Part shown: positions 421-29,781 of the stretch, piece after piece
Numbering within the stretch: the stretch's first letter is position 1
Layout: each line of letters begins with the position of its first letter
NCBI RefSeq assembly: GCF_037902255.1
Contig: NZ_CP147990.1
Span: 30,001 to 62,000 of the forward strand
DNA: 32,000 nt
Origin: Candidatus Electrothrix sp. GW3-4
GTDB lineage: Bacteria; Desulfobacterota; Desulfobulbia; Desulfobulbales; Desulfobulbaceae
Direction of reading: 5' to 3'
Made by a program: the position numbers and the translations under genes
The notes under the pieces: generated by a model
The model's input: only the letters and a program-made list of their open reading frames with translations
What the model was told of the DNA's origin: nothing
The model's database searches: none

Positions 421-1890
421 ATGTCTGAGGAACAGGGGAAAGAAATCAATACAGGCATACAGGCATTCTATGAGAATCCTGTGGAATTCATGAACCGTAT
501 TCCACCTAAATATGACGGGGATAAACTGGATTCTTCAGGCACAAGTGTCTTTGACCAAGTAGGTATTGAACAGAACGCCCATGTGGAGGCCCGTGATGCC
601 TTGCGCCAGCAGGTCACAGAACGGGATGAGATCGCTGTGGGGCGGGCTGCTTTTGCTGATAATGATGAGGCAGACGGCTTTGTTGACGAATTCCGTTTCT
701 CAGGCGTGCAGAGCATGGAAGATAATGGGCTTATGCATGCCAGCCTGGGAGAGTCTCCTTGGTCTGATGATTACTGGGCCCTGTATCTCGGTTCTCTTGG
801 ACATCGCTACGCAGATCCTGATTTTCCGGCTTCTGCTAATTGGAAAGAGAACTTTGATTATATTCAAAGGCATCCGGCGGGTCAGATCGTAGCGCAAGGG
901 AATGCGGATGCGATCAATCGTCTTTCCCCGGCAGAAAAATACGATATCCTGGTCGGTGACAGCGATTATTCGTTGACCCGGAAGATGTGGGAGCAGGGAA
1001 AAAAGTATTATGTCCAGAGCGGACAGGTAGAGACCTGGATGGGCCTCTGTCATGGCTGGTCACCGGCTTCCTATATGCTCCCCCGCCCAACCGGGACTGC
1101 CACGGTTCTTGCTGCTGACGGAAGTACTTATCTCACCTTTTATCCGGCGGATGTCAAGGCATTGGCCACGTTGCTCTGGGCAAAGGTAAAGTATCGTTCC
1201 CGCTTTATCGGCGGGCGTTGTAATGACAAGAACCCGGCTAAAGACCCACAGACCGGTCGGATTCTTTCGCAGATCTGTTTTGATACGAATCCGGGAACCT
1301 GGCATCTGGCGATCGTGAACCAGATTGGAGCCTCCTGTCGGAGTATGGTGATGGATGCGACCTACGACTATCAGGTTTGGAATCAACCCGTCCTCTCTTA
1401 TAGTTATCGTTATTTTAACCCGAAAAGCATGTATTATGCTGATTCGTTGACTGAGGCCAAGGTTGCTGCTAGTGATTTTACCAATGATAAATTTGTCCAG
1501 TTTCGCAGCAATGACACAGAGAGTTTGGTCGGGATTGAGATGAAGGTCTCGTATATTGTTGAAAAAGTACCAGAGCACGCAGAGACGGATACTGCTGCCG
1601 ATGACCAGGTGAAGACGGTTGTGTATCTCTATGATCTCGAACTTGATTTTGCTGGAAATATTATCGGGGGAGAGTGGTATCAGAATGCGCATCCAGACTT
1701 CCTCTGGACCCCGGTCCAGGGCGAACGGATTATGACAGCAGCAGAACGGCATATCCCTCTGACTGATAACTGGCAGAGCGGCCAGCCTTTGGCGCAGCAG
1801 TGGCAACAGAGCGCCGCAATGGCTGCAGAGTATGAGGAGGCCCCGTTGGCTGTGATTGTGGAACAGTTGATTGCCTTTTCAAATAGTTGA
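421..1890 (+). CDS. Papain-fold / transglutaminase-elicitor-like protein (putative Cys enzyme), cytoplasmic
   Basis: 489-aa ORF with an AGGAGG RBS about 7 nt upstream of ATG 421. The motif WMGLCHGWSPASYM resembles the catalytic-Cys region of TGase-elicitor-like proteins (recollection, unverified). No N-terminal signal peptide. A strong terminator lies downstream. Confidence 0.6.
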   Translation: MSEEQGKEINTGIQAFYENPVEFMNRIPPKYDGDKLDSSGTSVFDQVGIEQNAHVEARDALRQQVTERDEIAVGRAAFADNDEADGFVDEFRFSGVQSMEDNGLMHASLGESPWSDDYWALYLGSLGHRYADPDFPASANWKENFDYIQRHPAGQIVAQGNADAINRLSPAEKYDILVGDSDYSLTRKMWEQGKKYYVQSGQVETWMGLCHGWSPASYMLPRPTGTATVLAADGSTYLTFYPADVKALATLLWAKVKYRSRFIGGRCNDKNPAKDPQTGRILSQICFDTNPGTWHLAIVNQIGASCRSMVMDATYDYQVWNQPVLSYSYRYFNPKSMYYADSLTEAKVAASDFTNDKFVQFRSNDTESLVGIEMKVSYIVEKVPEHAETDTAADDQVKTVVYLYDLELDFAGNIIGGEWYQNAHPDFLWTPVQGERIMTAAERHIPLTDNWQSGQPLAQQWQQSAAMAAEYEEAPLAVIVEQLIAFSNS

Positions 1891-1994
1891 TGATCTAGTA
1901 AAAAGTCAAAGAACGGCAAGTCGTTAACGTAAACTCAGTGAGTTGTAATACGATTTTTTGCAAAATTGAACTTTTTACGAAACCATCAATAGAT

Positions 1995-2025
1995 ACCCCG
2001 TCCCTTGGGGCGGGGTTATTTTTTT
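1995..2025 (+). terminator. Rho-independent terminator of the 421-1890 gene
   Basis: ACCCCGTCCC-TT-GGGGCGGGGT gives a roughly 10-bp GC stem with one G-U pair, followed by TATTTTTTT. Confidence 0.7.
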
Positions 2026-2115
2026 GGGAGGCAGCTTTCTCGAGATGAAGGAAGATTGGCTTTCTGCGGAGCTGGTAGATAGAAAAAACTGAAAAGGATT
2101 GAATTTGGCAAATCT

Positions 2116-2790
2116 GTGAGCACCTCTGATTTTTTATACAAAGCATCTCTTGCCGTGGTCCCTCGGCTGTATGTCTCTCTGACAGCGCTTTGGTTCGGGA
2201 CTTGCCCTGTCCAGATCCGGGGGCAGGAGAACCTGGACAAGGTCTTGGAACAAGGAGCAGCCGTGGTGCCGTTCTGGCATTATTCTGTCTTTTACATGCT
2301 CTACCATCTGCGCCAATATCCCGGCGTGGCTATGGTCAGCGCGAGTAAAGATGGCGAGTACATTGCCCGGGTGGCGGGACTTCTCGGTTTTGAGACCGTG
2401 CGTGGTTCTGCCAATCGTTTTGGCGTCAGGGCCTTGAAGGGCATGGTGGATCATGTCAAGCAGGGCAAGAATGCCGGGATCGTGGCAGACGGCTCTCAAG
2501 GTCCAGCCCTGAAGATGCAGCCTGGCGCCATCATGCTGGCTGCAAAGTCTGGTTCGCCCATTATGCCCGTTGTTTGGGCGACAAAACGCTATAAGGCCTT
2601 CAATTCCTGGGACCACTCGGTCATACCCAAGCCTTTCAGTCCTCTTATTCTCCAATACGGTGACCTGATCTATGTAGAGCCCAAATTGACCTCTGTGCGG
2701 GTGGAGGAGTATCGGCAGCAGGTGGAAACGGCCATGTATCGCATGTATCAGGACCTGTGGCAGGAGTTCGGTCGGGACGGGCATGTGTAA
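2116..2790 (+). CDS. DUF374 / lysophospholipid acyltransferase-like family protein
   Basis: 224-aa ORF with a GTG start. The core VSASKDGEYIARVAGLLGFETVRGSANRFG...GIVADGSQGPALKMQPGAIMLAAKSGSPIMPV matches the conserved DUF374 pattern as I recall it. Confidence 0.75.
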   Translation: MSTSDFLYKASLAVVPRLYVSLTALWFGTCPVQIRGQENLDKVLEQGAAVVPFWHYSVFYMLYHLRQYPGVAMVSASKDGEYIARVAGLLGFETVRGSANRFGVRALKGMVDHVKQGKNAGIVADGSQGPALKMQPGAIMLAAKSGSPIMPVVWATKRYKAFNSWDHSVIPKPFSPLILQYGDLIYVEPKLTSVRVEEYRQQVETAMYRMYQDLWQEFGRDGHV

Positions 2791-2982
2791 TCCGGCGCGA
2801 GCACGGTGCAGGGGGAACGTTTGCACGCATTGATCTACTGAGGACTCGTGTCGCGGATAGGGCCGAGTTTTTACTTGCTGTACGACCCCTCCTGTTTTTT
2901 CGAGGAGATGTCTCGCAGCGTATTGATACGCTGTCACAGGCAGAAAAAAGTTCAATAGCCCTTTGATGCACCTGGTCATTCA

Positions 2983-3264
2983 TCAAGATTCATCAAGCCA
3001 GAGCTGGATATTATAGCATTCTGGTATGTTGACAGACCTGATAAGGCAGATGACGTCCACATCCTGACCATCCAGGCCGATCGGCGAGGAGGCGTTGACA
3101 ATAAAGGTGGAGGGATGGGCGTATTCATCGACAGGGGGGACTGTGACGAAGGTGCGATAAAATCCTTGTTTCTCGTTCAGCTTGATGTGTTTGACGTCTG
3201 TTACGCACCCTTTGATCCTTGTTTTCAGAAAAAAATCAGAAGGGACAGTCTTTGTTACTGACAT
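2983..3264 (-). CDS. Small hypothetical protein (93 aa), divergent from the CI-type regulator
   Basis: GGAG RBS 8 nt upstream of the ATG. The locus is AT-rich. No family recognised; the mostly beta-strand-like pattern (FYRTFVTVPPVDEYAHPSTFIVNASSPIGLDGQDVDVICLI) could be OB-like, but that is a guess. Confidence 0.5.
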   Translation of the reverse strand: MSVTKTVPSDFFLKTRIKGCVTDVKHIKLNEKQGFYRTFVTVPPVDEYAHPSTFIVNASSPIGLDGQDVDVICLIRSVNIPECYNIQLWLDES

Positions 3265-3443
3265 ATTTTTTCTCCTAGAAATATTTTTTTCTGTATTTTG
3301 TTGGAGATACAGAGCTATATTTTAGGTGAGCAGGTTGTAAGGAAAATACCCGTCCACTTATGTTGTCCAGTTTGAAAAGTTGATTGTTGATGTACTATAT
3401 TTAAAAATAAATATCATATTTTCTATATTCCGAAAAGATAGAC

Positions 3444-3938
3444 ATGTCAATAAGGAAAAATATAAAAAAATATAAAAATAATTTCCTGGCTGCATGGGGG
3501 CGTATAAAGAAAGAGACGAGTATAAGCAATTTTAATAGGTTGGCTGAAGTGATTGGCAAGACGCAACCGAGTATATCTGCTCGAAAAAAAGCAGGAGATT
3601 TTCCTATTGAATGGGCGTACTTGGTCGCTAAGGAATATAATCTTTCCACAGAGTGGATCCTCACAGGAGAGGGTGAGAAATCACCAGTAATACGGAAAGA
3701 ACAAGAGGCGTATCAGTCTTCAGCTGTTGAGGGGCAACAAGATAATGAGGTCGCGGAGCCGCCGGAAAAATATGAGGAAATATTGCCCAGTGAGGAAGAG
3801 CGAGAGAGGTTTTTGGTTCTCTTAAAGGCGTGGTTGTTTGAGTTGGAACAGGCTGATCCTAAAAGGATATATTGGTTTGAATGTGCCTTTGAAGATAGTT
3901 TTCCGGAATTTAAAGAGTGGAAAAAGAATATTGATTGA
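3444..3938 (+). CDS. Phage CI-repressor-type HTH transcriptional regulator
   Basis: The N-terminus FNRLAEVIGKTQPSISARKKAGDFPIEWAYLVAKEYNLSTEWILTGEG fits the Phage_CI_repr HTH pattern. The C-terminal half is acidic and has no S24 peptidase motifs. Confidence 0.7.
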   Translation: MSIRKNIKKYKNNFLAAWGRIKKETSISNFNRLAEVIGKTQPSISARKKAGDFPIEWAYLVAKEYNLSTEWILTGEGEKSPVIRKEQEAYQSSAVEGQQDNEVAEPPEKYEEILPSEEERERFLVLLKAWLFELEQADPKRIYWFECAFEDSFPEFKEWKKNID

Positions 3939-4095
3939 TCGGAAAAGTTATATTAAGGGTCTGGTATAGAAATAGTGATTAAAAAGCGCTCTGAACAGTG
4001 TCCAACCTGCGTGAAGCAGGCCGCTTTGGTATGATTTGGCATACATTCGGGTGGAGGGGCATGTACCGAAAAAAGAGACGTGTAGGGACGGTGTT

Positions 4096-5043
4096 GTGCG
4101 AGTATTGATTTATGGTGGTGGTGCGGTCGGGCTGGGGCTTGCTGCCTGCCTGCTCAAGAGAGGCGAACAGGTCGATATTCTGGCCCGGGAAAATACACGA
4201 CACGCCCTGCAAGGGAACGGGCTGCGGCAGAGCGGTATCTTGGGTGCGTACCATGCCGAGCCTCAGGCCTTTGGCTGTTTTTCCGGCATTGATGAGCTGC
4301 CGGGAACACCCTATGACCACATCCTGGTTTGTACGAAGTCCTTTGATTCACCAGCAGTGGCCCGAGACATTGCTGCCCATCCTCTCCTCTTCCATGAGCA
4401 AAGCGCGATTGTCCTGGTTCAGAACGGCTGGGGCAATGCAGAGATCTTTGCCGAGCATCTGCCCGCAAAGCGTATTTTCAATGCCCGGGTGATCACCGGG
4501 TTTTGCAGGCCGCAGGCAAATCAGGTGGAGATTACTGCCCATGTCCAGCCCATCCATATCGGGAGCCTGTTCGGGGCAGGACTTGCTCCCATAGAGGAAC
4601 TTTGTCGAACGATCAACCAAGGGGGGATCCCCTGTGCGGCTGCACCGGATATTGCCCGTGATCTCTGGGCCAAGATGCTCTTCAACTGCGCCCTGAATCC
4701 TCTGGGCGCGATTTTTAATGTGCCCTATGGTGCCCTGGCAGAACAGGAAAATTCTCGTCAGATCATGGCTGCGGTGATCCATGAGGTGTTCCTGGTGATG
4801 GAGGGGGCGGGCTACAGCACCCATTGGGCCAGTGCAGGGGAGTACCTGGAGGCCTTTTACGGGACCATCGTTCCCCTTGCAGCCAGACATCGCTCATCCA
4901 CCTTGCAGGATATCCAGGCCGGGAAAAAGACCGAGATTGATGCCTTGAGCGGGGCGGTTATTCTCTTGGGCAAGGAGTTGGGAATCGCGGTGCCGTGTAA
5001 TCGGATGCTTTATAATATGATTCGGTTTATGGAGTGGAGATGA
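4096..5043 (+). CDS. panE: 2-dehydropantoate 2-reductase (ApbA/PanE family)
   Basis: Rossmann motif VLIYGGGAVGLGLAACL. The C-terminal STLQDIQAGKKTEIDALSGAVILLGKELGIAVPCNRMLYNMI is typical of ketopantoate reductases. The ORF is open from TTG 4036, but GTG 4096 puts GxGxxG at the N-terminus as usual, so the start is uncertain. Confidence 0.85.
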   Translation: MRVLIYGGGAVGLGLAACLLKRGEQVDILARENTRHALQGNGLRQSGILGAYHAEPQAFGCFSGIDELPGTPYDHILVCTKSFDSPAVARDIAAHPLLFHEQSAIVLVQNGWGNAEIFAEHLPAKRIFNARVITGFCRPQANQVEITAHVQPIHIGSLFGAGLAPIEELCRTINQGGIPCAAAPDIARDLWAKMLFNCALNPLGAIFNVPYGALAEQENSRQIMAAVIHEVFLVMEGAGYSTHWASAGEYLEAFYGTIVPLAARHRSSTLQDIQAGKKTEIDALSGAVILLGKELGIAVPCNRMLYNMIRFMEWR

Positions 5044-5189
5044 ACGATTACCCTTTGCTTGTTTCCGAAGAAAACTGGCAAGCTGTCCAGGAAACTTTTT
5101 GTTTGTTGTTTGTTCCGGGAATGCGGGAATCCATTAGAGAAGGACTGGCGACTCCTGTTGAGGAATGTGATTCAGAGATTGAGTGGTGA
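5040..5189 (+). pseudogene. Truncated Phd/YefM-family antitoxin remnant (C-terminal half only, 49 codons)
   Basis: ATG 5040 overlaps the panE stop (ATGA). The translation is MNDYPLLVSEENWQAVQETFCLLFVPGMRESIREGLATPVEECDSEIEW. This matches the C-terminal half of YefM-type antitoxins (...VLxSEEDWxAxQETLYLLSIPGMRESIxEG...). The frame is closed by TAA at 5013-5015, so the N-terminal ~40 aa are absent. No toxin gene follows. Confidence 0.55.
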
Positions 5190-5238
5190 TGTGAAAGTTG
5201 ATTATAGCAGAAATCGTAACCTCTATTAGGTTCTTACT

Positions 5239-8200
5239 TTGACAGCAAAAGAGGTGCATGTCAACCAAACGACCGGTGGGATTCCTGCGTTACGAGGCTT
5301 CCGCAAGCAATTCCTTCATACGCTGAACAGTATTCTTTCGTCAGAAACAGGGCAGTTCTGTCCTGAAAGTTTGGAAGATTTTGCAGCTCGCGATAGTGCA
5401 GGTAAACTAACTGAAATTGTACAAGTTAAAGATTATAAAGCCAAATTAATATTTTCTGAGCTGAAAACTTTTTTTGAACGTGCTGCCGATTATATCAAAC
5501 GTTACCCGGACGTTCAGATTGTTCTGGCAAGCTACGGTGAGCTGGGGCCAGAATTACAGAAGTATATAGGTGCTGATGAAGCAGTCCTGAAAAAAAGCAA
5601 GAAATTCAACACACCGGAACTGCTGAAGGTCTTTCAGCGTCTCAAGCATCGTCCTCTCAATGAAGAGAAAGAACTCAGCTCTATCAAAGAACAGCTTACG
5701 CAGTTTCCTTTAACAACTGGTGATCTGGAAACGACCTTTGATCTGCTGATGCAGGAGCTTTACCGTGGTGCGGAACAGGAAAAGGGCTATACCCGGCAGG
5801 ATTTGCTGGAACGCTTGCAGAAGATCGGTCAATATCTTGCCGCTCGTGGAGCACTTCACAGGGAATGGGGTACCTCCATCATCCCGTTACTGGATCAGGA
5901 AATTGATGACAGGGAACAACTGCGCAAAGCGTTTCATGAAGGTGTGTCGGTTGGCTGGCGGCATATCCTGTCTGATCTGGATGTTAAACGCCAGCAGCAC
6001 TTAAACACCATTCAAGAAGGGTTCAAAAAAACAAATATTGTCATTGTACATGGCGCATCTGGGCAGGGAAAATCTGCTCTGGCCTATCGATATCTGCACG
6101 ATTACTGTCCTGCCTCATCCCGTTATGAAATACGGGATTTAAGTACATCGAAAAGAGCTTTGGAAGTTGCTGCCGCTCTTGCCGGGTATGGTATTCCCGT
6201 AACCTTCTATGTTGATGCCAGCCATAATGACAAAGGACTTGCTGAATTTTTACGGAGCATCAGTGAAATGAAGCATATTAGCTGTCTTGTCTCCATTCGG
6301 GAGGAAGACTGGCGGCTGACCGACATAACTTCGGCTGACATCATATTTGCAGATGTGGAGCTTGTTTTTAATCGTGAAGAGGCGCAGGCACTTTATGCGG
6401 CATGGGAAGATGAGAGAGGCAGTCGTTTCCCTGATTTTGAACAGGCTTGGGCAAAATTTTTAGAAGATGGGCCGTTACTCGAATTTGTTCATTTGCTGAC
6501 GCACACAGAGAATTTACGTCACCGTTTGCAAAAGCAATATGATCAGATTGCCGATGAGGTTGATTGCCAACAAAGGTCGGAAAACGATCTGAAGTTAATC
6601 AGACAAGTTGCGGTGGCCGGAGCTTGCGGTGCCCGTATTGATTTAGCCAAGTTAGCTAAACTGCCCGGCAACACAACACTGAAACGGTCAATTGACCTTT
6701 TAGAAAAAGAATATTTGCTGCGACTTAGCGGCGATTCCCGCCATTTAACAGGATTACATCCTGTCCGTTCTGAAATCCTCGCCTCCATTATTGCAGACCC
6801 TGTTCTGTGCCCTTGGGAAACATTGGCCTTGGATTGCCTGCCCTTGCTGGAGGATGCAGATATAGAAATATTCCTTCTCCATATCTTTCGTTTCCACTCA
6901 AAGGCCACGAGTGCCGTTCTTGCATATTTGAACACGGCAAAATACGAGACTTGGCTTGCGGCAAATGGTGTATTGCGTGCCCTGCTATGGCTGGGGATAT
7001 ATGAATACATTCAGAATAATGCCAAACTGATCAAGCAAGTTTATGATAAGGTCGGTCATGGTTGGTTTGCTGTTTTAGATTTTGTGGACTTTGTTGGAGT
7101 GCTGGATAAACCATTAGGCATTCTGGATTCTATTGAGGAAGGAAGGAAACAGACAGAACAATGGCAAAGAGAGCAACTGCCTAAATCGCAAGTATTCACA
7201 AGAATTGATGAATGGCTGCAACAGGTCATGCTTCCGTCAATTCCTGATTATGGAAAAGAGAATGACTGGAATGAATTTGGACAGGTTACTTATTGGACGG
7301 GATTCAGGAAAATCAACAAACGGATAGAGAAACTTATAGATTGGAATGCACTTTGTCAAACTGTAGAAACGTTACCTATAGAAACGACAGCGGTTTTGCT
7401 TTATGGTTTATGGCAGGCTCTTTCAAATACGGATGCTTTTATTCAATGGTACGAAGGTATTCGTCCAACTTTGCTTGATCGTTATCGTAAGGAAACTAAC
7501 ACGCCATATATTGAAGAACAAGATGGAATTATTCGAGCGTATTTCATTGCTCCTTTAGATGATGAAAAGAGAGAGGAAGAAGCTGCTCAAGAACATTCTG
7601 TTGTTTATTTACATGATGATACAGGAGATTCAAGTTCTGATGAAACGGAACCTTTTCATGCGTTGGCAATGCACCATGTCGATCTTTTGGCGCAATTAGT
7701 TCCAGATTGCGCAGGATATGGTTGTCAAGGGTACGGACATCAAGTTCTTGACATTGAATATCCTTATGATGAAACAACGAAAACAAATATTTCAGCAAGT
7801 TACCTGAAGCCAAGCTGGGTGGTGTATGTCAATAATACTGCCCGCATCTTGGGCAGCCACAGGTTTAGACCTGCAACATGGCAGGATTACAGTAACCAGA
7901 TGTTTGCTGTACGGAATGATGTGGTTTCAACTCTTGATGAACTCCACAGGCATTTAGTAAAACATTTTCGCCGCAAGGATGTCGTTCAAGAACTCAGCAA
8001 ATTATCAGATACTGAAGAATGGAAAAAAACGGCTCGGCAAGTAATGAATCGACCATCTTTTCCCGTGGAATCGCTGGATCAATTCGGATATACAGAGGAA
8101 AGGCTGAAGGATATTTCGACAGCCAAAGATCACGAAAGCAGAAAAACAGAAACTATCATTTCTGCATACCTACAGCAGTATCAGCCATACCTCAAAGCAA

Positions 8201-9441
8201 CAAGGGAATATTTTAATAGCATACGGAACTTTTTAAATTTAGCTGCATCAGTGATGCTGGCAAATGCCTTTCTTGGCAAAGCTGATACTTCTCAGAGACG
8301 TTTTGTTAAGCACCAACTTCAAGAATCAAACATTAAAATCACCAAACCTCTACTTCCCGTATTCAATCTGGCAGATTCCATAAAAAATCTTCCGCAATTT
8401 CAAACCTCCTTCCGAAAGCATTTTTCTCGCCTGATAGACAGTGAAGCACTTTCTCAGCTGGAACAGAAAGAGCGTGCAACGCTCCATTCCTTATGGCCTT
8501 TGTGGTTTTGCTTTGAGACAACCCCAAGCCGCCGAATGGCTGTTCCAGGAAAGACTGCATCAGATCAACTGGAACGGCGAAAAAAGGCTCTTCGGAGCAA
8601 GCTGTTCAAAGCGTTGGAAAAGGCTTCAACAGAGAGTCTTCAGTTCAATATTCTGGGCGATTCTGTTGAATTCGACAGCAAACCTGCGCTGTGGATAACG
8701 ATAGACGGTGAGAATCCATTTGAAGTCTATACGCAAACAGAGCAGCTTTATAAGCTGCTACGAAGTTCTTGGGGTGAGATCAAACTGCACTCACTTGATC
8801 ATTTTTCCTTGGAATTTCAATGGCGGAAGATTATTCTTGTGCCGATGTGCAAAGGAAAGCTCCTGGAAGCTCAGGCATGGATTATCTCAATCTATAAATT
8901 CATCAACGAGTTGGGCGGTGACCAGGGTTTGGCTGCTTACAACTTGATTCCTCAGCAAATTGAGCAGGAGGCTCTGGAGGCTTTAGGACTGAAAGTCTGG
9001 GAACCAGCATTGCTCAATGATGCGAAGCTGTTCCTTCAAAGTGCAGCAACATTGCAGGTGCGCCTTCGGCATTTGGTGCAAATGGGAGATATGCCGGATT
9101 CGGATGATACCGGAAGCGAGATCGTGCAGTCTTGGTTTGAGAAAACACAGGGAGCTGGAAGTCAGGAGTTGCAGCAACTATTTGATAAATCCAACCTGCT
9201 TATATCGGCGCATAATCAGCTCGTAAATGGAGAGGAAGAAACATATGCAAACGAATATTTACAGGTTGCTTATGAACAGTTAATGGAGGTTTACAATCAA
9301 TTTTTTCCTGAAGAACTGGAAGATGGCAAAGTTCATCTGACTCATGAAGCTATGAAAAAGTGGCAGGTACAGCTTTTGTCTGTTCAAGGTACTGTGTTCG
9401 TTATCTATTTATACTGGTGCGGATATGCTATTAATCGCTAA
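5239..9441 (+). CDS. Cap4/DUF4297-like PD-(D/E)xK nuclease + STAND-type P-loop NTPase + ~950-aa C-terminal region with no recognised motif (Avs/NLR-like)
   Basis: 1400-aa ORF starting at TTG 5239 or in-frame GTG 5254. The N-terminus reads TGGIPALRGFRKQF...ESLEDFAARDSAGKLTEIVQVKDY (GF..Q, ED, QxK). Walker A is GASGQGKS (aa 272-279, nt 6052-6075). Walker B is VTFYVDAS (D326). CLVSIRE fits an hhhSxR STAND motif. Confidence 0.85.
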   Translation: MTAKEVHVNQTTGGIPALRGFRKQFLHTLNSILSSETGQFCPESLEDFAARDSAGKLTEIVQVKDYKAKLIFSELKTFFERAADYIKRYPDVQIVLASYGELGPELQKYIGADEAVLKKSKKFNTPELLKVFQRLKHRPLNEEKELSSIKEQLTQFPLTTGDLETTFDLLMQELYRGAEQEKGYTRQDLLERLQKIGQYLAARGALHREWGTSIIPLLDQEIDDREQLRKAFHEGVSVGWRHILSDLDVKRQQHLNTIQEGFKKTNIVIVHGASGQGKSALAYRYLHDYCPASSRYEIRDLSTSKRALEVAAALAGYGIPVTFYVDASHNDKGLAEFLRSISEMKHISCLVSIREEDWRLTDITSADIIFADVELVFNREEAQALYAAWEDERGSRFPDFEQAWAKFLEDGPLLEFVHLLTHTENLRHRLQKQYDQIADEVDCQQRSENDLKLIRQVAVAGACGARIDLAKLAKLPGNTTLKRSIDLLEKEYLLRLSGDSRHLTGLHPVRSEILASIIADPVLCPWETLALDCLPLLEDADIEIFLLHIFRFHSKATSAVLAYLNTAKYETWLAANGVLRALLWLGIYEYIQNNAKLIKQVYDKVGHGWFAVLDFVDFVGVLDKPLGILDSIEEGRKQTEQWQREQLPKSQVFTRIDEWLQQVMLPSIPDYGKENDWNEFGQVTYWTGFRKINKRIEKLIDWNALCQTVETLPIETTAVLLYGLWQALSNTDAFIQWYEGIRPTLLDRYRKETNTPYIEEQDGIIRAYFIAPLDDEKREEEAAQEHSVVYLHDDTGDSSSDETEPFHALAMHHVDLLAQLVPDCAGYGCQGYGHQVLDIEYPYDETTKTNISASYLKPSWVVYVNNTARILGSHRFRPATWQDYSNQMFAVRNDVVSTLDELHRHLVKHFRRKDVVQELSKLSDTEEWKKTARQVMNRPSFPVESLDQFGYTEERLKDISTAKDHESRKTETIISAYLQQYQPYLKATREYFNSIRNFLNLAASVMLANAFLGKADTSQRRFVKHQLQESNIKITKPLLPVFNLADSIKNLPQFQTSFRKHFSRLIDSEALSQLEQKERATLHSLWPLWFCFETTPSRRMAVPGKTASDQLERRKKALRSKLFKALEKASTESLQFNILGDSVEFDSKPALWITIDGENPFEVYTQTEQLYKLLRSSWGEIKLHSLDHFSLEFQWRKIILVPMCKGKLLEAQAWIISIYKFINELGGDQGLAAYNLIPQQIEQEALEALGLKVWEPALLNDAKLFLQSAATLQVRLRHLVQMGDMPDSDDTGSEIVQSWFEKTQGAGSQELQQLFDKSNLLISAHNQLVNGEEETYANEYLQVAYEQLMEVYNQFFPEELEDGKVHLTHEAMKKWQVQLLSVQGTVFVIYLYWCGYAINR

Positions 9442-11457: not shown

Positions 11458-12881
11458 CAGTGTTAGATGAACAAGAAGTGAGTGTGGTAACCCGAAACGA
11501 GAAGGCTGCAACCGGCTGCCTTGTCATTGCCGGGTTGAGCGGCGGCTCTGGGAAATCCGTGGCCTCTGTGGCCCTGACCGCGGCCCTGCGGCGCCGTGGA
11601 TATGCTGTGGTGCCCTTTAAAAAAGGACCGGATTATATCGATGCGGGCTGGATGACCACCGCAGCCGGGCGTCCTTGCTATAACCTGGATCCTTACCTTA
11701 TGTCTGAGGAGGCTATTGTTCATTCTTTTCAGCAACAGGCTATTGGTGCTGATTTTGCCCTGATTGAGGGGAACCGGGGCCTCTATGACGGGGTGACCGC
11801 AGAGGGCGGCTTCTCCACCGCTGAGCTGGCTGTGCAGTTGGATCTGCCGGTCCTGTTGGTGGTGAATTGCAGCAAGACCACCCGGACCGTTGCGGCCCTG
11901 GTGCTGGGGTGTCGGGAGCTGGATAAACGGGTGCGCATTGCCGGGGTCATCCTTAACCAGATCGCCACCCCTCGTCATGAGCGGATTATCACCGAGTCGG
12001 TGGAGAAATATACCGGTGTCCCGGTGGTGGGCATTATCCCACGTATGAAGACGGATATCTTTCCCATGCGTCATCTCGGGGTCACCCCGCAGCAGGAGTA
12101 CGGAGCAGCAGAGACTGATGCGGCTGTGGACCGCTTGGCAGCTCTTGCGGAGGAGCATTTTGCTCTGGAGCGGATCTCCGCTCTGATGGAGCGAAGAAAT
12201 TTGAGCACCACCCCTTCAGCTCAACAGCCCGGAGGAGCAGGGAAAGTTGAACCGGTCAAGATAGGTGTCCTGCGGGATGCAGCCTTTCAGTTTTATTACC
12301 AGGAAAACCTGGATGCCCTGCAAGAGGGCGGGGCGGAGCTGGTCATGATCAACGCCCTGACCGCTGAGGCCCTGCCTGCTGATCTGGATGCCCTGTACAT
12401 TGGCGGTGGTTTCCCGGAGACCAGTGCCCGGCAGCTGGCCGATAATGTCTCCTTCCGGGATTCCGTGCGTCAGGCAGCAGAACAAGGGCTGCCCATGTAC
12501 GCGGAATGCGGTGGTCTGATCTTTCTTGGTCGCTCCATTATTCTTGAGGGTGATGAATATCCCCTTGCCGGGGTCTTCCCGGTGACCTTCAGTATGTCAA
12601 GCAAGCCCCAGGCCCATGGGTATTCTACTTTTATCGTTGATCGAGAAAACCCGTTTTACTCGCTGGGTACAGAGGTGAAGGGACATGAGTTTCGCTATTC
12701 GGTGGTGAAAAGCTGGGATGGCGGGCCTGAAGAGCTGGCCTTGCGGATGGAGCGGGGCACTGGTTTTCAGGGGAAGCGCGATGGCCTGGTGAAGAAGAAT
12801 GTCCTGGCCCTGTACACTCATGTCCTTGCGCCGGGGACCCCGGAGTGGGCAGCGGGGCTGCTGCGGGCGGCAGCCGGATAG
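11454..12881 (+). CDS. cbiA: Cobyrinate a,c-diamide synthase family amidase (CbiA/CobB; a DsrN-type siroheme amidase paralogue is not excluded)
   Basis: GLSGGSGKSVASVAL and KKGPDYIDAGW form the N-terminal ATP-binding domain. YAECGGLIFLG is the C-terminal glutamine amidotransferase nucleophile region. The start overlaps the ppx stop (ATGA). Confidence 0.85.
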   Translation: MTVLDEQEVSVVTRNEKAATGCLVIAGLSGGSGKSVASVALTAALRRRGYAVVPFKKGPDYIDAGWMTTAAGRPCYNLDPYLMSEEAIVHSFQQQAIGADFALIEGNRGLYDGVTAEGGFSTAELAVQLDLPVLLVVNCSKTTRTVAALVLGCRELDKRVRIAGVILNQIATPRHERIITESVEKYTGVPVVGIIPRMKTDIFPMRHLGVTPQQEYGAAETDAAVDRLAALAEEHFALERISALMERRNLSTTPSAQQPGGAGKVEPVKIGVLRDAAFQFYYQENLDALQEGGAELVMINALTAEALPADLDALYIGGGFPETSARQLADNVSFRDSVRQAAEQGLPMYAECGGLIFLGRSIILEGDEYPLAGVFPVTFSMSSKPQAHGYSTFIVDRENPFYSLGTEVKGHEFRYSVVKSWDGGPEELALRMERGTGFQGKRDGLVKKNVLALYTHVLAPGTPEWAAGLLRAAAG

Positions 12882-13017
12882 ACAAGGCTGTCAAAGTCAG
12901 AAGAGAAAGAAAAATAAATCTGTCCTCCTTTTCCCTTACGCCGGTAGCGCAGCCCAAAATTCTGTTCAAGGAACAGCTTCCAACGCACCTTTTACAGGGA
13001 CAACTCCCGCGGAGGCG

Positions 13018-13041
13018 ACCGGCAACAACCTTTTTGCCGGT
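13018..13041 (+). terminator. Hairpin downstream of cbiA (weak terminator candidate)
   Basis: ACCGGCAA-CAACCTTT-TTGCCGGT forms an 8-bp stem. It is followed by AT-rich sequence rather than a clean T-run, and it directly abuts the 21-bp repeat array. Confidence 0.3.
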
Positions 13042-13052
13042 TCAATTAAAGC

Positions 13053-13325
13053 GATTCACACTTCAATCAGGACGATTTCAATTTAAATCAGGTCAATTGA
13101 AACTTCAATCAAGGCGATTTAAATTGAAATCAGACCAATTTAAATTTGAATCAGAGTGATTTAAACTTAAATCAAGACGATTCACACTTCAATCAAGGCA
13201 ATTTCAATTGAAATTGGATCAATTCACACTTCAATCGAGCCGATTTAAATATGAATCAGGGCAATTTAAATGTAAATCATCCCGATTCGCACTTCAATCA
13301 GGACGATTTAAATATACATTTATTG
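13053..13325. repeat. Tandem array of 12 full + 1 partial 21-bp units, each a 16-bp imperfect palindrome plus 5-bp spacer
   Basis: Unit starts are at 13053+21n with no phase slip. Consensus RATTYAAAYTTRAATCAGGRC, with invariant ATT...AATC half-sites. Examples: GATTCACACTTCAATCAGGAC, GATTTAAATTGAAATCAGACC. Confidence 0.9.
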
Positions 13326-13463
13326 AAGGAAAATTAATAAATATTGAATAGATGCTTGTGTCGAAACGCCTGTAGGCCGCAGCTCAGACATAAAAACAAA
13401 CATCAGAGCAAGGAGGGTTTTTTCCTGCAAAACCGGACCTGAAGAATAAAGGGACTTCTTGTC

Positions 13464-26161: not shown

Positions 26162-26419
26162 ATGTCCGGGATAAAAACAGCGATTTCCTTGGATGAACAT
26201 CTGTTCAATGAAGTCAAAGAGACGGCTCGTGACCTGAATACGTCCAGAAGCGGTGTGATCAGGCAGGCATTGCTTGAATTTATGGAAAGACGGAAGAATC
26301 AACGTCTGCTTGAGCAACTGAATGAAGCATATAAGGACGGGCCGACAGGGGAAGAAGAGAATATTGCCCGATCAATGCGGAATGCGCAGCAGGGGATAAC
26401 AGAGCAGGAGCCGTGGTGA
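26162..26419 (+). CDS. Ribbon-helix-helix (CopG/MazE-like) antitoxin
   Basis: MSGIKTAISLDEHLFNEVKETARDLNTSRSGVIRQALLEFM is an RHH beta-strand/helix/helix pattern. The RBS AGGAAAGAAAG lies before ATG 26162. The gene overlaps the toxin start. Confidence 0.8.
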   Translation: MSGIKTAISLDEHLFNEVKETARDLNTSRSGVIRQALLEFMERRKNQRLLEQLNEAYKDGPTGEEENIARSMRNAQQGITEQEPW

Positions 26420-26769
26420 TTCGGCAGGGGGAAATCTACTGGCTTGATGTTGGCAAGCCGAGAGGTTCTGAGCCGGGCTATCGGCATCCGTATCTCGTTG
26501 TTCAGAATAATCTCTTCAATGCGAGTCTGATCAACACGGTTGTTGTCTGTTCGTTAACGTCCAATCTTCGCCGGGCCGCAGCTCCGGGTAATGTTCTGCT
26601 TCGTAAAGGGGAGGCGAATTTGCCGAAAAAGAGCGTGGTCAATGTTTCGCAGATATTCACGGTGAATAAATCTGACCTGACAGAAAAGATCGGGCAGATT
26701 TCCAAGCAGCGGTTCCTGGAGATACTGGAAGGGATCAGGTTGCTTACGGAGCCGAGAGAACTCTCCTGA
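26413..26769 (+). CDS. mazF: MazF/PemK-family endoribonuclease toxin
   Basis: RQGEIYWLDVGKPRGSEPGYRHPYLVVQNNLFN...VVVCSLTSN...VVNVSQIFTVNKSDL is the typical PemK/MazF SH3-like fold signature. GTG start overlapping the antitoxin stop. Confidence 0.85.
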   Translation: MVIRQGEIYWLDVGKPRGSEPGYRHPYLVVQNNLFNASLINTVVVCSLTSNLRRAAAPGNVLLRKGEANLPKKSVVNVSQIFTVNKSDLTEKIGQISKQRFLEILEGIRLLTEPRELS

Positions 26770-26879: not shown

Positions 26880-27275
26880 CTAAGTTAAAGCGTCTAACAT
26901 CAAGAGTGCTGTTCCAACAAGTAAAGATAATGCACATGTAATTGCCGAACTAGGAGATACTTGAGACGCATTCGAGAAGAAAGAGACAAGAATTGGTAAT
27001 CCTATCCCCAAGAATCCCCCTCCAACTGGTCCATATAGTTTCTTCTTCCAGTTTCTTCGCTCAATCGAACGAAGCCTTTTCTTTGCTTCTTCTACATGGA
27101 TACAGCTTATCTGCTGTACACCATCCCGTGCTGCAACCCGTGCAGCTTCCAAGACTAATTCTGCTCCATACTCAGTAGAGAAGTCTTCTATCTTTGTCTT
27201 TGCTTCTGGAGAATGAGGTTCACCTTCTGTATCAAGCATTTTTTTTACAACATTATAGGGTGCAGTATTACTCAT
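26880..27275 (-). CDS. 131-aa membrane protein: N-terminal histone-fold-like domain + two C-terminal TM helices; translationally coupled to the ROCO gene
   Basis: ATG 27275 is preceded by AAGGGGGA. It overlaps the ROCO stop codon by 8 nt (ATGAGTAA). TM segments are LYGPVGGGFLGIGLPILVSFF and AITCALSLLVGTALLMLDAL. The fold call for the N-terminal ~70 aa is explained in the findings. Confidence 0.7.
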   Translation of the reverse strand: MSNTAPYNVVKKMLDTEGEPHSPEAKTKIEDFSTEYGAELVLEAARVAARDGVQQISCIHVEEAKKRLRSIERRNWKKKLYGPVGGGFLGIGLPILVSFFSNASQVSPSSAITCALSLLVGTALLMLDALT

Positions 27276-29781
27276 GCTTATCCCCCTTTTGTGGATCATC
27301 AAGAACTCTAGCTCGGACTTTAGATTTTATTCCTTCAAAGAGACTATTAAGATTGATACCGACACCAAAAGCATTCGGCTTTAACTCAAGATTTATGTTG
27401 CTTGCCTCCGTTGCCGCCTCCTTGTGCTCAAGCTCCGCCTGAAGTTTCTGCATCGTTCTTAGTATCTCATCTTCCTTGCTTGGTTCTACTAAGCCCAGCA
27501 GTTCCTTCACGCTGTACCGCTTCTTTGAGCCATCTGGAATGAAAATGTCCGCACCAGCCTCAGCAAAATTGATTAAAGTTTCATAGTCGGCACTGCGCTG
27601 CGGGTCGTCAGGCATTGGAATGCGTTCGCTAACCTCAAGCTTTTCGAAGCTATTGTTTATTTCTCTTAGTGTGAACCAGAGGAAGCTGAGATACTCCTTG
27701 CGGCGCGGACCATGCACCCAGAGGTAGATACGCCGGGCCTCATGATCCGCCTTGACCACGGCATTGGTGCCGCTTGCCTTGTCCTCAAGTACAACCCCTG
27801 TACGCCAGCATAGACCCGATTTGATATTTTGATGCACCTTGACCATGAAGCGGGAAAAGACCGAGGGCGGCAGGAAGTCCTGATACTGAAGAATGAAGCC
27901 CAATGAGCCGCTATAGTCAAAGGTAAATTCCGGTTCATCAATAGGAAAGAACTGGGGGAGGAGAACGGCCTCCTCACCGACACCCCAGCATAGCTGAAAC
28001 TTCTTCATCAGCTCCAGAATAAATACATGTGTATGTATCGGCCAAGAGTGCTTTTCCTCTTCTTCATGCTGCAGAATTTTCTTAAGGCTTTCCAATTGCA
28101 GAAGACCGTTGCTGTCCGCCATCTCCTTAGCCGTGATGATTTTATATACCGCTTGCGTTATCCAGACCGGATCAAGTACATGCATGGCATTTAGAATGTA
28201 GTCATCGAAATGTATGGCTGCACCTAGGTCATGAAGAAAGCTAAGTAGAGTTTTCTGATTTTTTTCCTCGGAGATGCCTGCTTTTTTACAGATAGTTTCA
28301 TACTCCTCACAGCTAATGTAGGGCTTGCCCATTTGTCCGATACGCTGCTTGACCGCAAACCAGCTTTTCGGCCAAGGAGTATCCAGAAGCGGCATTTGTC
28401 GCAGCTCTTTGAGTAGTGCAACCCGGAACTCCTCAATACCTACATTGTTTTTGCATGAGGTGGGATAGAAGCCAGTTATGGTCGGATACTTACGTTGCAG
28501 ATGCACACAGTTGAGCCCAAACCCGCAACTCTCATCCTGCTTGTTGAGTACGACCAGCACGGGCGAGTCCCCGCCAAAGCTCTCAATATGCTGAAGCCAG
28601 TATTCGGGTCGCTCCTCCTTACGCCCATCAAGCACTAAGATATACAGGCTGCGTTTGGAAAGGAAGAATTGGTGGGTGGTGTGCTGGATAACTTGGCCAC
28701 CAAAGTCCCAAATGTTGATTCTGATCTTTCTGTCGCCGATATCCTGTTGCCAGCCATTAATATTGATACCATGCGTAGTGTCCTCGTGATGGTCAAAGGA
28801 CAAGCCGAGTAGCCGCTTGACTAAGGAAGTCTTGCCTGCCGCACCGTCGCCGACGACGAGAACTTTTACCTCGCTGAGGGACTGATCTTTTGACGGGAGG
28901 AGAACAGGATCAGAAACCACTCCTATTGAGGTGTTGGGTTTAAAGGCAGCGAAATACTGACAGATGGCATCAATGCCCCGAGTGGCTATTTCATACGGCG
29001 GAGAGGTGAGGGGATTGCGACCGAAGTAAAGTTCCTTCAGGTTCTTGAGCTTACAGATTTCTCGCGGCAGGCTGCTGAGATGGTTGTTGCTGAGGTTAAG
29101 CACCATCAGCTTTGTTAGCTGGCAGATTTCTGGTGGCAGAGTGGTGAGTTCATTATCCAGGAGGAAAAGTTTTTTCAGACTCGTAAGCTTGCAAATTTCC
29201 AATGGCAGTACATTGAGCCGATTGTTGCTGAGGTTAAGCTCTGTCAAATTCGTGAGCTGTCCGATTTTCGGCGGCAGGTTGCTGAACTGGTTATGGCGGA
29301 GGTCAAGTACCGTCAGCGTCGTGAGCTGGTAGATTTCCGGCGGTAAACTTCTGAGATGGTTGTGGCCAAGATTAAGTCCCGTCAGCTGCTTGAGCTGACC
29401 GATTTCCGATGGAGGGTTGTCGATATAGTTGCTGTAGAGGTCAAGCTCCTTTAGTTTTGTAAGCTTGAGAATTCCTGACGGCAGATTTCTGAGTTGGTTG
29501 TTACGGAGGTCAAGAACCGTCAGATTCGTGAGCTGGCTAATTTCCGGCGGCAGAGTGGTGAGTTTATTATTCCAGAGCCTGAGTTTTTGTAGATTCGTGA
29601 GTTTGCGGATTTCCGGCGGCAGGCTACTGAACTGGTTATTGCAGAGGTCAAGCTCCGTCAGATTCGTGAGCTGACCTATTTCCGACGGTAATTCTTTCAA
29701 CCCTTGTCCGCTCAAGCGAAGCGTTGTTGTCCCGCTTGCCTTGGCCTCTTCTATCTTCTGCAACACTCTTTCATTCGTCAT
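27268..29781 (-). CDS. ROCO-family GTPase: 11 x 23-aa leucine-rich repeats + Roc (Ras-of-complex) GTPase + COR domain + short C-terminal tail
   Basis: LRR units follow LTNLTELDLxNNxLxxLPPEIxQ (aa ~15-270). Roc motifs: G1 GDGAAGKT (aa 311-318, nt 28828-28851), G3 WDFGGQ (aa 358-363), G4 NKQD (aa 413-416), and TSCK. A long COR-like region reaches ~aa 780 (…IPMPDDPQRSADYETLINFAEAGADIFIP…). Confidence 0.9.
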   Translation of the reverse strand: MTNERVLQKIEEAKASGTTTLRLSGQGLKELPSEIGQLTNLTELDLCNNQFSSLPPEIRKLTNLQKLRLWNNKLTTLPPEISQLTNLTVLDLRNNQLRNLPSGILKLTKLKELDLYSNYIDNPPSEIGQLKQLTGLNLGHNHLRSLPPEIYQLTTLTVLDLRHNQFSNLPPKIGQLTNLTELNLSNNRLNVLPLEICKLTSLKKLFLLDNELTTLPPEICQLTKLMVLNLSNNHLSSLPREICKLKNLKELYFGRNPLTSPPYEIATRGIDAICQYFAAFKPNTSIGVVSDPVLLPSKDQSLSEVKVLVVGDGAAGKTSLVKRLLGLSFDHHEDTTHGININGWQQDIGDRKIRINIWDFGGQVIQHTTHQFFLSKRSLYILVLDGRKEERPEYWLQHIESFGGDSPVLVVLNKQDESCGFGLNCVHLQRKYPTITGFYPTSCKNNVGIEEFRVALLKELRQMPLLDTPWPKSWFAVKQRIGQMGKPYISCEEYETICKKAGISEEKNQKTLLSFLHDLGAAIHFDDYILNAMHVLDPVWITQAVYKIITAKEMADSNGLLQLESLKKILQHEEEEKHSWPIHTHVFILELMKKFQLCWGVGEEAVLLPQFFPIDEPEFTFDYSGSLGFILQYQDFLPPSVFSRFMVKVHQNIKSGLCWRTGVVLEDKASGTNAVVKADHEARRIYLWVHGPRRKEYLSFLWFTLREINNSFEKLEVSERIPMPDDPQRSADYETLINFAEAGADIFIPDGSKKRYSVKELLGLVEPSKEDEILRTMQKLQAELEHKEAATEASNINLELKPNAFGVGINLNSLFEGIKSKVRARVLDDPQKGDKHE

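Follow-up and report, generated by a model that had tools for sequence, protein, structure and literature searches.

A Cap4-like nuclease-STAND protein of a cable bacterium is a probable Avs-type immune sensor whose C-terminal module lacks detectable relatives beyond its own family

What does a single, very long gene that joins nuclease motifs to ATPase motifs do in a cable bacterium, and what could the rest of its product sense? We addressed this question in Candidatus Electrothrix sp. GW3-4, using a stretch of 32,000 nucleotides of contig NZ_CP147990.1 (positions 30,001 to 62,000 of assembly GCF_037902255.1), hereafter called the window. The gene lies at positions 5239-9441 of the window, and an initial annotation of this DNA, made from the letters and their open reading frames (ORFs), had proposed it as a single-gene immunity candidate of the antiviral STAND (Avs) type, with a nuclease, a STAND ATPase and a C-terminal sensor in one polypeptide. 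The analyses presented here suggest that the product is probably a single-protein, Avs-type (bacterial NLR-like) abortive-infection sensor, and that it represents an uncharacterised family of such sensors.

The gene is one unbroken ORF on the forward strand that starts with TTG, stops at 9439-9441 and encodes 1400 amino acids. The TTG start was kept in the orthologues of four Electrothrix species, and full-length homologues with 88 to 30% identity spanned 99-100% of the protein. The motifs that had been read in the translation were all present and intact: G13G..R19GF..Q24F, E43SLED47 and E59IVQ62VK64 close to the N-terminus, followed by the Walker A motif G272ASGQGKS279, the Walker B motif FYVD326 and S352IREED357. 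Their conservation was determined by aligning 109 full-length homologues, the most distant of them at about 30% identity. Q62, K64, K278, D326 and R354 were invariant, while E43, E46, D47 and E59 were conserved at 96-98% (96% for both D47 and E59), indicating that the motifs are not there by chance. Scans for promoters and terminators in the surroundings of the gene remained at chance level, a repeat search revealed no flanking direct or inverted repeats marking an insertion, and none of the complete E. coli genomes, all searched by megablast, contained a match to the gene.

The domains to which these motifs belong were assigned by structure prediction and profile searches. The AlphaFold2 model of residues 1-620, built on 88 homologues, had a predicted local distance difference test score (pLDDT) of 90.9, and its best Foldseek match in the PDB was Avs3 (8dgc, E=1.5e-13), followed by Avs4 (8dgf). 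Further matches comprised SAMD9, HerA-DUF4297 (9c1m_G, E=7.9e-8), EfAvs5, MalT, Lamassu LmuA (9hr5, E=8.8e-6), CED-4 and Dark, with classical AAA+ unfoldases ranking lower in the list. Since the best structural matches were STAND proteins, the view that the NTPase is not a housekeeping AAA+ protein withstood the structure comparison. The sole significant Pfam match of the query was nSTAND_NTPase5 (PF25199, residues 231-360, 36.5 bits with a cut-off of 34, E=5.3e-9); most homologues carried it too, and many of them showed a faint second match to nSTAND3. The characteristic elements of the STAND superfamily were found at both levels, as motifs (Walker A, Walker B and the sensor-1 Arg354) and as a fold in which the nucleotide-binding domain is followed by a helical domain and by a winged-helix domain with an invariant His507. 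This histidine, which lies in the motif GLHPxR, is presumably the MHD-like one, and the helical and winged-helix boundaries given here were placed by inference. The STAND module reaches residue 520 approximately, and the linker that precedes it (residues 151-250) contains the invariant residues E179, W210, G235, D248 and R251. The hhhD / hhhS-R succession, from which a STAND NTPase had been deduced, was thus corroborated by a Pfam match above threshold and by the invariance of K278, D326 and R354.

The nuclease was traced through intermediate relatives. A profile of the first 230 residues found the DUF4297 chain 9c1m_A as its best match among PDB sequences (E=0.055), and the alignment covered the catalytic motifs GF.YQ, E..ED and QxK. 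In addition, the Pfam family Cap4_nuclease (PF14130) matched four out of nine family members weakly (best E=0.008), the relative on MT836892 at E=7.5e-4, and an IS1-disrupted relative on the Acaryochloris plasmid pREB4 (locus L094) with 29.2 bits, above the cut-off of 26.2. Because the profile aligns to DUF4297 over the motifs and relatives match Cap4_nuclease, the N-terminal 150 residues or so are best regarded as a putative, divergent PD-(D/E)xK nuclease of the Cap4/DUF4297 type. Its signature, a GF.YQ helix followed by D...(E/Q)xK, was recovered by conservation, by the profile and by the Foldseek search with the whole 1-620 model, and the PD-(D/E)xK fold expected at the N-terminus was borne out as Cap4-like by the matches to LmuA and HerA-DUF4297. 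A natural exchange of the effector was also found. The close relative P0037 (1501 residues, on a 6-kb NCBI contig), which is 49% identical over 89% of the length, has the nuclease core replaced by a CHAT protease (Pfam E=5e-9) and retains the linker, the NTPase and the C-terminal module. The swap point falls at about residue 150, which is why we set the effector boundary there. Altogether, structure, profile and family evidence support the proposed order of effector, STAND ATPase and large C-terminal domain, and the protein shows the general Avs architecture: an N-terminal effector, a STAND NTPase and a presumed C-terminal sensor of at least 400 residues, with no obligatory partner.

What, then, is the C-terminal part? 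The initial annotation had recognised no motif in its ~950 residues. As regards known families this was confirmed, as Pfam, NCBIfam and PADLOC scans of the query found nothing in the C-terminal part (the NCBIfam scan returned nothing meaningful for the query as a whole), and a C-terminal family profile matched nothing among PDB sequences and Pfam. The claim did not stand in full, since the STAND module takes up the first portion of this length and motifs that are invariant within the family were found in the remainder. The AlphaFold2 model of residues 601-1400 was confident (pLDDT 89.2; predicted TM-score, pTM, 0.86). In it, a helical arm leads into a small subdomain built on a beta-sheet, after which come long helices, another alpha/beta subdomain and, at the end, a bundle of helices. 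Foldseek found no match to this model in the PDB (best E=0.11, probability 0.09), where the solved-sensor entries 8dgc, 8dgf, 9jap and 9zjw were present and none was returned, and no match to the C-terminal model among the BFVD viral models. Similarly, phmmer with the full-length protein against PDB sequences gave noise only, self-comparison of five C-terminal segments by hhalign revealed no internal duplication or repeat, and the all-helical arm (residues 521-756) had no family, repeat or fold match. By these models and searches, the C-terminal module is a confidently predicted structure with no detectable relative outside its own family.

Within the family, the module was well defined. A search of 1.84 billion representatives with the C-terminal profile found 840 relatives at E<=1e-3 (clusters at 50% identity), 482 of them at E<=1e-30. 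The 150 best matches either had the same architecture of about 1400 residues or were shorter sequences matching in register, which we read as fragments, and among these 150 the module sat only behind the same nuclease-ATPase module. Invariant or near-invariant motifs were GYGH831-834, D844/K848, N865, R877, R892 and P942..D947..G950..E954, and the polar residues H834, D844, K848, N865, R877, R892, D947 and E954 were located on or beside two strands of the small predicted beta-sheet. At residue 768 (nucleotides 7540-7542) the cable-bacterium protein has a Tyr, where 94% of the family have a His in an HF motif (..RAHFIV..). Distant relatives, such as a 1325-residue Hymenobacter plasmid protein and a 1110-residue protein from a faecal 'phage' contig, retained only the first 400-500 positions of the C-terminal region, approximately, without GYGH. 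When compared with distant homologues, the C-terminus showed 24-30% identity and the N-terminal half 36-40%; a sensor role of the C-terminus fits this pattern, because the C-terminus diverges faster.

These properties also bear on a different reading, in which the module would sense a non-protein ligand (a nucleotide, a nucleic-acid end or a metabolite) or would be an enzyme, so that an Avs-like switch would be combined with another input logic. The module is compact, non-repeat and mixed alpha/beta, and it was modelled with high confidence; its invariant polar residues are close together in sequence, at two strands of the predicted sheet; and it aligned end to end across phyla, at the low identity given above, without domain swaps. 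Non-protein sensing is also allowed for by Lee et al. (PMC13581612). Yet the module resembled no enzyme or ligand-binding fold, GYGH was lost in distant relatives that keep the fold, and the conserved residues could equally form an autoinhibitory interface with the NTPase. We consider this reading unlikely.

We then compared the protein with known systems. A PADLOC scan of the query at E<=1 found only PDC-S73 (P-loop only, E=0.002) and PDC-S05 (E=0.027), and no Avs, AVAST or PD-lambda-4 model; PADLOC-DB 2.0 presumably contains the PD-lambda-4 (Avs8) models. Together with a C-terminus unlike the solved Avs3, Avs4, Avs5 and SAMD9 sensors, this agrees, as far as Avs1-5 and PD-lambda-4 are concerned, with the earlier expectation that the protein would not belong to an Avs family already described. 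Avs3 (SeAvs3, 8dgc) is similar in having the same domain order in one polypeptide, a Cap4-type nuclease, a standalone gene and a location in defence islands. However, the Avs3 sensor consists of tetratricopeptide repeats (TPRs) and serves for the phage large terminase, whereas the C-terminal 800 residues studied here are non-repeat and show no structural similarity to it; moreover, Pfam places the query NTPase in another STAND family, nSTAND5, and no PADLOC Avs model matched. In SeAvs7, a Cap4 nuclease and a STAND ATPase are joined to a bilobed TPR sensor, which recognises the major capsid protein with the help of EF-Tu (Lee et al. 2026, PMC13581612). SeAvs7 shares the Cap4 effector and the tripartite logic with our protein, and its sensor family exchanges N-terminal effectors as in the CHAT swap. 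In contrast, its sensor is described as TPR while ours is predicted to be mixed alpha/beta with no detectable repeat, so that the two are set apart by description.

The group of Avs5, Avs6, Avs9 and SAMD9 has an nSTAND3-type NTPase (PMC12680541), and SAMD9 and EfAvs5 were significant structural matches to the NTPase region of the query. Its effectors are SIR2, PNP and AlbA_2 and its sensors TPR plus OB, whereas our protein has a Cap4-like effector; the PNP effector of Avs6 and the AlbA_2/SIR2 effectors of Avs9 were absent from the query according to Pfam. Membership in the SAMD9-like Avs6/Avs9, which the SAMD9 match had prompted us to consider, was ruled out on the basis of these differences in effectors and sensor. 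On combined sequence and model evidence, the protein thus appears to be neither one of Avs1-5 or Avs8 nor a SAMD9-like Avs6/9. The nuclease itself is related to CBASS Cap4, Lamassu LmuA and HerA-DUF4297, as its motifs GF.YQ, E..ED and QxK align to 9c1m_A and its fold matches LmuA and HerA-DUF4297; those nucleases are controlled by SAVED domains, the SMC-like LmuB and HerA helicases, respectively, and here the controlling part would be a fused STAND NTPase. A literature search for nSTAND5/PF25199 found no paper, and the nSTAND papers found concern nSTAND1-3 only. Lee et al. (Nature 2026) reported 589 STAND clades and 684 sensor structural clusters, and characterised Avs7, 8 and 10-24, which are mostly enterobacterial with mostly TPR-like sensors (PMC13581612). 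Cap4-bearing STANDs were among their seeds, and their tree carries labels for nSTAND clades (PMC13581612), so the family may already be an unnamed cluster of that catalogue.

Where the family occurs was then determined. Relatives were encoded in 121 out of 185,579 species (0.07%, with one genome per species). The closest named ones were Candidatus Electrothrix proteins with 69-83% identity. Among the listed loci, which are the best 80 of the 121, 15 belonged to cyanobacteria, 15 to Chloroflexota and 18 to Desulfobacterota, cable bacteria included; others were from large sulfur bacteria (Thiomargarita and Parabeggiatoa), methanotrophs and Sorangium, with isolated carriers in Bacteroides, Arcobacter, Pseudoalteromonas, Tumebacillus and Methanosarcina. 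We take many of the carrier lineages to be filamentous or multicellular. No match from Enterobacteriaceae was found among 72,556 plasmids, and a single metagenome-assembled genome represented the Enterobacterales among the best 80 genomes. In Electrothrix the locus was syntenic in four species (the window, L001, L012 and L014, including E. aarhusensis, E. gigas and Electrothrix sp. YB6): panE precedes the gene, and ppx or cobB follows it. Compared with E. aarhusensis, the STAND protein was 79% identical and its neighbours 79-88%.

Signs of horizontal flux were present in addition to this sparse distribution. The Electronema copy is located at a locus other than the Electrothrix one, two full-length copies are on plasmids, and a relaxase or plasmid context was seen at some loci. 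Eight copies were split into at least two ORFs (L018, L020, L026, L047, L066, L072, L081 and L089), apparently by frameshifts or insertions; split copies came from Microcoleus, Lyngbya, Vecturithrix, Thiocapsa, an acidobacterium, Methylobacter and Methylovulum, and the Acaryochloris pREB4 relative was cut by IS1. Base composition pointed in the same direction. The gene has a G+C content of 43.7% (39.8% at third codon positions) in a window of 49.4%, with 56% for panE, 58% for ppx and 56-58% for panE, ppx and cobB taken together. The gene is therefore poorer in G+C than its neighbours, as initially noted, and the contrast had been overstated as 25-40% against about 60%. Across the family, the gene was below its own flanks in 48 out of 53 homologue loci (L001-L090; median difference -5.7 points, Wilcoxon p=1.6e-9), so AT-richness characterises the family as a whole.

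A STAND protein with a housekeeping or regulatory function, such as an ATPase of the DNA-repair or MalT-like kind, might resemble an immune sensor. Synteny within Electrothrix, the housekeeping neighbours in the window, and MalT and archaeal ATPases among the structural matches would be consistent with it. Such a protein would not, however, be expected to have as its output a conserved nuclease that can be exchanged for a CHAT protease, with no DNA-binding helix-turn-helix (HTH) or other regulatory output domain, nor to be encoded in so few species with pseudogenised copies, a G+C content lower than the flanks and neighbours in defence islands. This explanation is very improbable.

Genomic neighbourhoods provided further information. 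The idea of a partner gene or operon was dropped, since clustering of the neighbours revealed no conserved partner in 53 loci, where the largest common neighbour cluster covered three loci; the system would therefore consist of a single gene. Twelve homologue loci were described by Pfam-annotated gene tables (Table 1), and an MmeI neighbour was found at L091. For 40 further loci, the ORFs within 5 kb (324 ORFs) were scanned with PADLOC at E<=1e-8. Pooled over these loci, not counted per locus and without a matched control, the strong matches comprised type I methyltransferase (E=0) and specificity subunits, GajA (1e-285) with GajB (1e-255), Hhe (1e-273), Avs2 (3e-168), Avs1a (9e-106), LmuA (8e-94), AbiEii (1e-90), PtuA, the SIR2 model 'Aga_SIR2-PNTD1-PNTD2', the Mokosh proteins MkoA and MkoC, AriA and NsnB. 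In qualitative terms, defence and conflict genes often surround members of the family, and the locus of the window is an exception. The expectation that homologues would be found beside defence genes was thus supported at many loci (L009, L091, L095-L097 and the 40-locus tallies) and failed at the window's own locus, which is housekeeping. As in Avs systems generally, association with defence genes and mobile elements, given that the tallies have no matched control, went together with a modular effector.

Two of the loci deserve a description of their own. At L095, a PIN_12 gene (12227-13369, +) was found, and a NACHT gene and a caspase-like gene lie within 6 kb downstream; the overlap of the PIN_12 gene with the STAND stop codon suggests co-transcription. 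At L093 (MT836892.1, 'Bacteriophage sp.', human faeces), a 1110-residue relative adjoins an AAA_15/AAA_21 ATPase (1882-8412). This relative has a Cap4 nuclease, a STAND module and a truncated C-terminal module on a contig of 8.7 kb whose 'phage' label is unverified, and it may be a defence cassette on a mobile element.

The identity of the carriers and of some neighbours raises the question of whether the protein is an NLR for programmed cell death or self/non-self conflict in multicellular bacteria, with cell damage, kin cues or stress as the trigger and cells of the filament being sacrificed. STAND conflict systems have been linked to multicellular prokaryotes (PMC8195603), which counts for such a role. 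Many of the carriers are cable bacteria, Microcoleus, Lyngbya, Calothrix, Thiomargarita, Parabeggiatoa, Anaerolineae, Caldilineaceae, Ktedonobacteraceae and Sorangium; the gene is kept stably and in synteny in Electrothrix among housekeeping neighbours; and NACHT plus caspase and TIR genes neighbour some homologues. The family is nevertheless also found in Bacteroides, Arcobacter, Pseudoalteromonas and Deinococcus, which we take to be unicellular lineages, and restriction-modification, CBASS, Gabija and Lamassu genes are frequent neighbours. As the main function, we judge a conflict role to be rather improbable; it is not mutually exclusive with an anti-phage role, and the two are compatible with each other.

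An Avs-type abortive-infection sensor is the reading that we favour, and the domain identities, the motif conservation, the standalone organisation, the effector modularity and the defence-island neighbourhoods carry it. The functional details of Avs3 and Avs4 (8dgc, 8dgf) offer a template for how it might work. At rest, the protein would be an autoinhibited monomer, presumably bound to ADP, with His507 and the sensor-1 Arg354 possibly helping to hold the nucleotide. On infection or entry of a mobile element, the C-terminal alpha/beta module of about 650-800 residues would bind the trigger, which may, by analogy, be a conserved phage protein. Binding would free the nSTAND5 NTPase for ATP binding and oligomerisation, and this would gather the N-terminal Cap4-like PD-(D/E)xK domains into an active nuclease (D47, E59/Q62 and K64). 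The nuclease would then degrade DNA, so that phage replication would stop and the cell would be lost. The trigger, the oligomerisation, the DNA cleavage and the abortive infection are proposed by analogy with Avs3, Avs4 and Avs7 (PMC13581612).

Several observations weigh against this reading. The query did not match Cap4_nuclease PF14130 even at E<=1. Most characterised Avs sensors are TPR-like, which the C-terminal module here is not, and its invariant polar cluster might, judging from the model, be a ligand or catalytic site instead. The synteny in Electrothrix and a divergence like that of the neighbours make the gene more stable than a typical defence gene, and in the window its neighbours are housekeeping genes (panE, cytochrome c, ppx and cobB). 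Finally, the neighbourhood tallies are pooled and uncontrolled, and some of the matching PADLOC models are unspecific (PD-T4-6 kinases, MkoA helicases and mads).

Table 1. Features of the STAND gene and its surroundings in the window, and genes near homologues at the loci with Pfam-annotated gene tables
Feature	Position in the window, or locus	Strand	Basis
Complete nuclease-STAND-sensor gene (1400 aa; sensor presumed)	5239..9441	+	ORF, full-length homologues, kept TTG start
Putative Cap4/DUF4297-like PD-(D/E)xK nuclease core (aa ~12-150)	5272..5688	+	Motif conservation, profile, Foldseek
Candidate catalytic residues D47 and E59/Q62/K64	5377-5379 (D47); 5413-5430 (E59/Q62/K64)	+	Conservation 96-100%
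Helical linker / N-terminal arm of NTPase (aa 151-250)	5689..5988	+	AlphaFold2 secondary structure, conservation
STAND nucleotide-binding domain (aa 251-378)	5989..6372	+	Pfam PF25199, invariant residues, AlphaFold2 alpha/beta pattern
Walker A; Walker B; sensor-1 region SIREED	6052-6075; 6205-6216; 6292-6309	+	
STAND helical domain and winged-helix domain (aa 379-520)	6373..6798	+	AlphaFold2, invariant H507/R510, Foldseek
GLHPxR with H507 and R510	6751-6768	+	H507 and R510 invariant
All-helical arm from STAND core to C-terminal module (aa 521-756)	6799..7506	+	Both AlphaFold2 models
C-terminal non-repeat alpha/beta and long-helix module, presumed sensor (aa 757-1400)	7507..9438	+	AlphaFold2
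Conserved polar cluster in the C-terminal module: GYGH; DETTK; P942-E954; also N865, R877, R892	7729-7740; 7768-7782; 8062-8100	+	
49-aa ORF, Phd/YefM-type antitoxin remnant	5040..5189	+	tblastn
Type I restriction-modification, AAA_15 ATPase, CBASS (SMODS and S_4TM), IS66	L009		
Large helicase, Eco57I-like gene, methyltransferase; plasmid-borne	L002		
PIN toxin-antitoxin pair	L006		
AbiEii	L007		
Relaxase	L010		
HTH-M78	L003, L097		
PIN_12 overlapping the STAND stop codon, plus NACHT and caspase	L095		
Intact Phd/YefM directly upstream, HicAB, other STAND/TPR genes	L096		
TIR-pentapeptide protein	L097		
Mostly housekeeping neighbours	L001, L005, L008		

The surroundings of the gene in the window included further features. 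Directly upstream, the initial annotation had reported a decayed antitoxin gene. The 49-residue ORF found there resembled, in tblastn against plasmids, the 3′ half of genes annotated as Phd/YefM antitoxin (37-68% identity), so that it matches only the C-terminal half of these antitoxins; it had no hidden Markov model match and was not kept at the orthologous E. aarhusensis locus, and no toxin gene was found beside it. We regard this remnant as probably a scar outside the system. A distant homologue, P0094 at L096, is likewise preceded immediately by a Phd/YefM gene, in this case intact (L096 7470-7760, -). The presence of Phd/YefM beside both genes could be a coincidence within defence and toxin-antitoxin islands, or the association may be recurrent.

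A phage CI-repressor-like HTH protein is encoded at 3444-3938 (+), two genes ahead of the STAND gene, with a low G+C content of 40%. It is kept at the same position in E. aarhusensis with 79% identity, which argues against a recent prophage scar. A 281-residue ORF at 2134-2979 (-) was discarded as probably spurious, having no family match and overlapping the DUF374 gene (2116-2790, +; E=1.6e-24), which is syntenic with E. aarhusensis. A transglutaminase-elicitor-like gene lies at 421-1890 (+), and in E. aarhusensis, some 6 kb before the STAND orthologue, two such genes flank a caspase-like Peptidase_C14 gene (L001 1404-6970). At a greater distance, the window encodes a MazF/PemK-type toxin (26413-26769, +; Pfam E=1.3e-27) and an 837-residue bacterial ROCO protein with leucine-rich repeats, a Roc GTPase and COR-A and COR-B domains (27268-29781, -). 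ROCO proteins have a signalling-NTPase architecture that is linked to conflict systems of multicellular bacteria.

Avs and NLR-like receptors comprise many families, each of which is tuned to a single conserved component of phages, and to our knowledge nearly all tested Avs examples are enterobacterial with TPR-like sensors. As no fewer than 90 sensor types are already on record, one more Avs family would not be very surprising. What distinguishes this family is a C-terminal module for which no relative was detected, a range of carriers made up mainly of cyanobacteria, Chloroflexota, Desulfobacterota and large sulfur bacteria, and an unusually stable retention in Electrothrix. The question that makes the family interesting is what its non-TPR module senses. 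There is a slim but not negligible chance that the module stands for a new class of input, with the polar cluster serving as the binding pocket for a signal other than a protein (for instance a nucleotide, a nucleic-acid structure or a metabolite) or with a phage component that would be new as an Avs trigger. In either case the protein would be a receptor of the Avs type whose class of input is new. Knowing the trigger would widen the range of things that bacterial pattern-recognition receptors are known to see, and could test whether non-protein sensing exists among Avs receptors. If the Avs-type reading is true, the filamentous or multicellular carriers, and the fact that cable bacteria retain the gene stably, would be in keeping with a system in which individual cells of a filament are sacrificed. 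For cable bacteria, this would mean a conserved candidate suicide-defence gene in organisms whose filaments depend on every cell staying intact.

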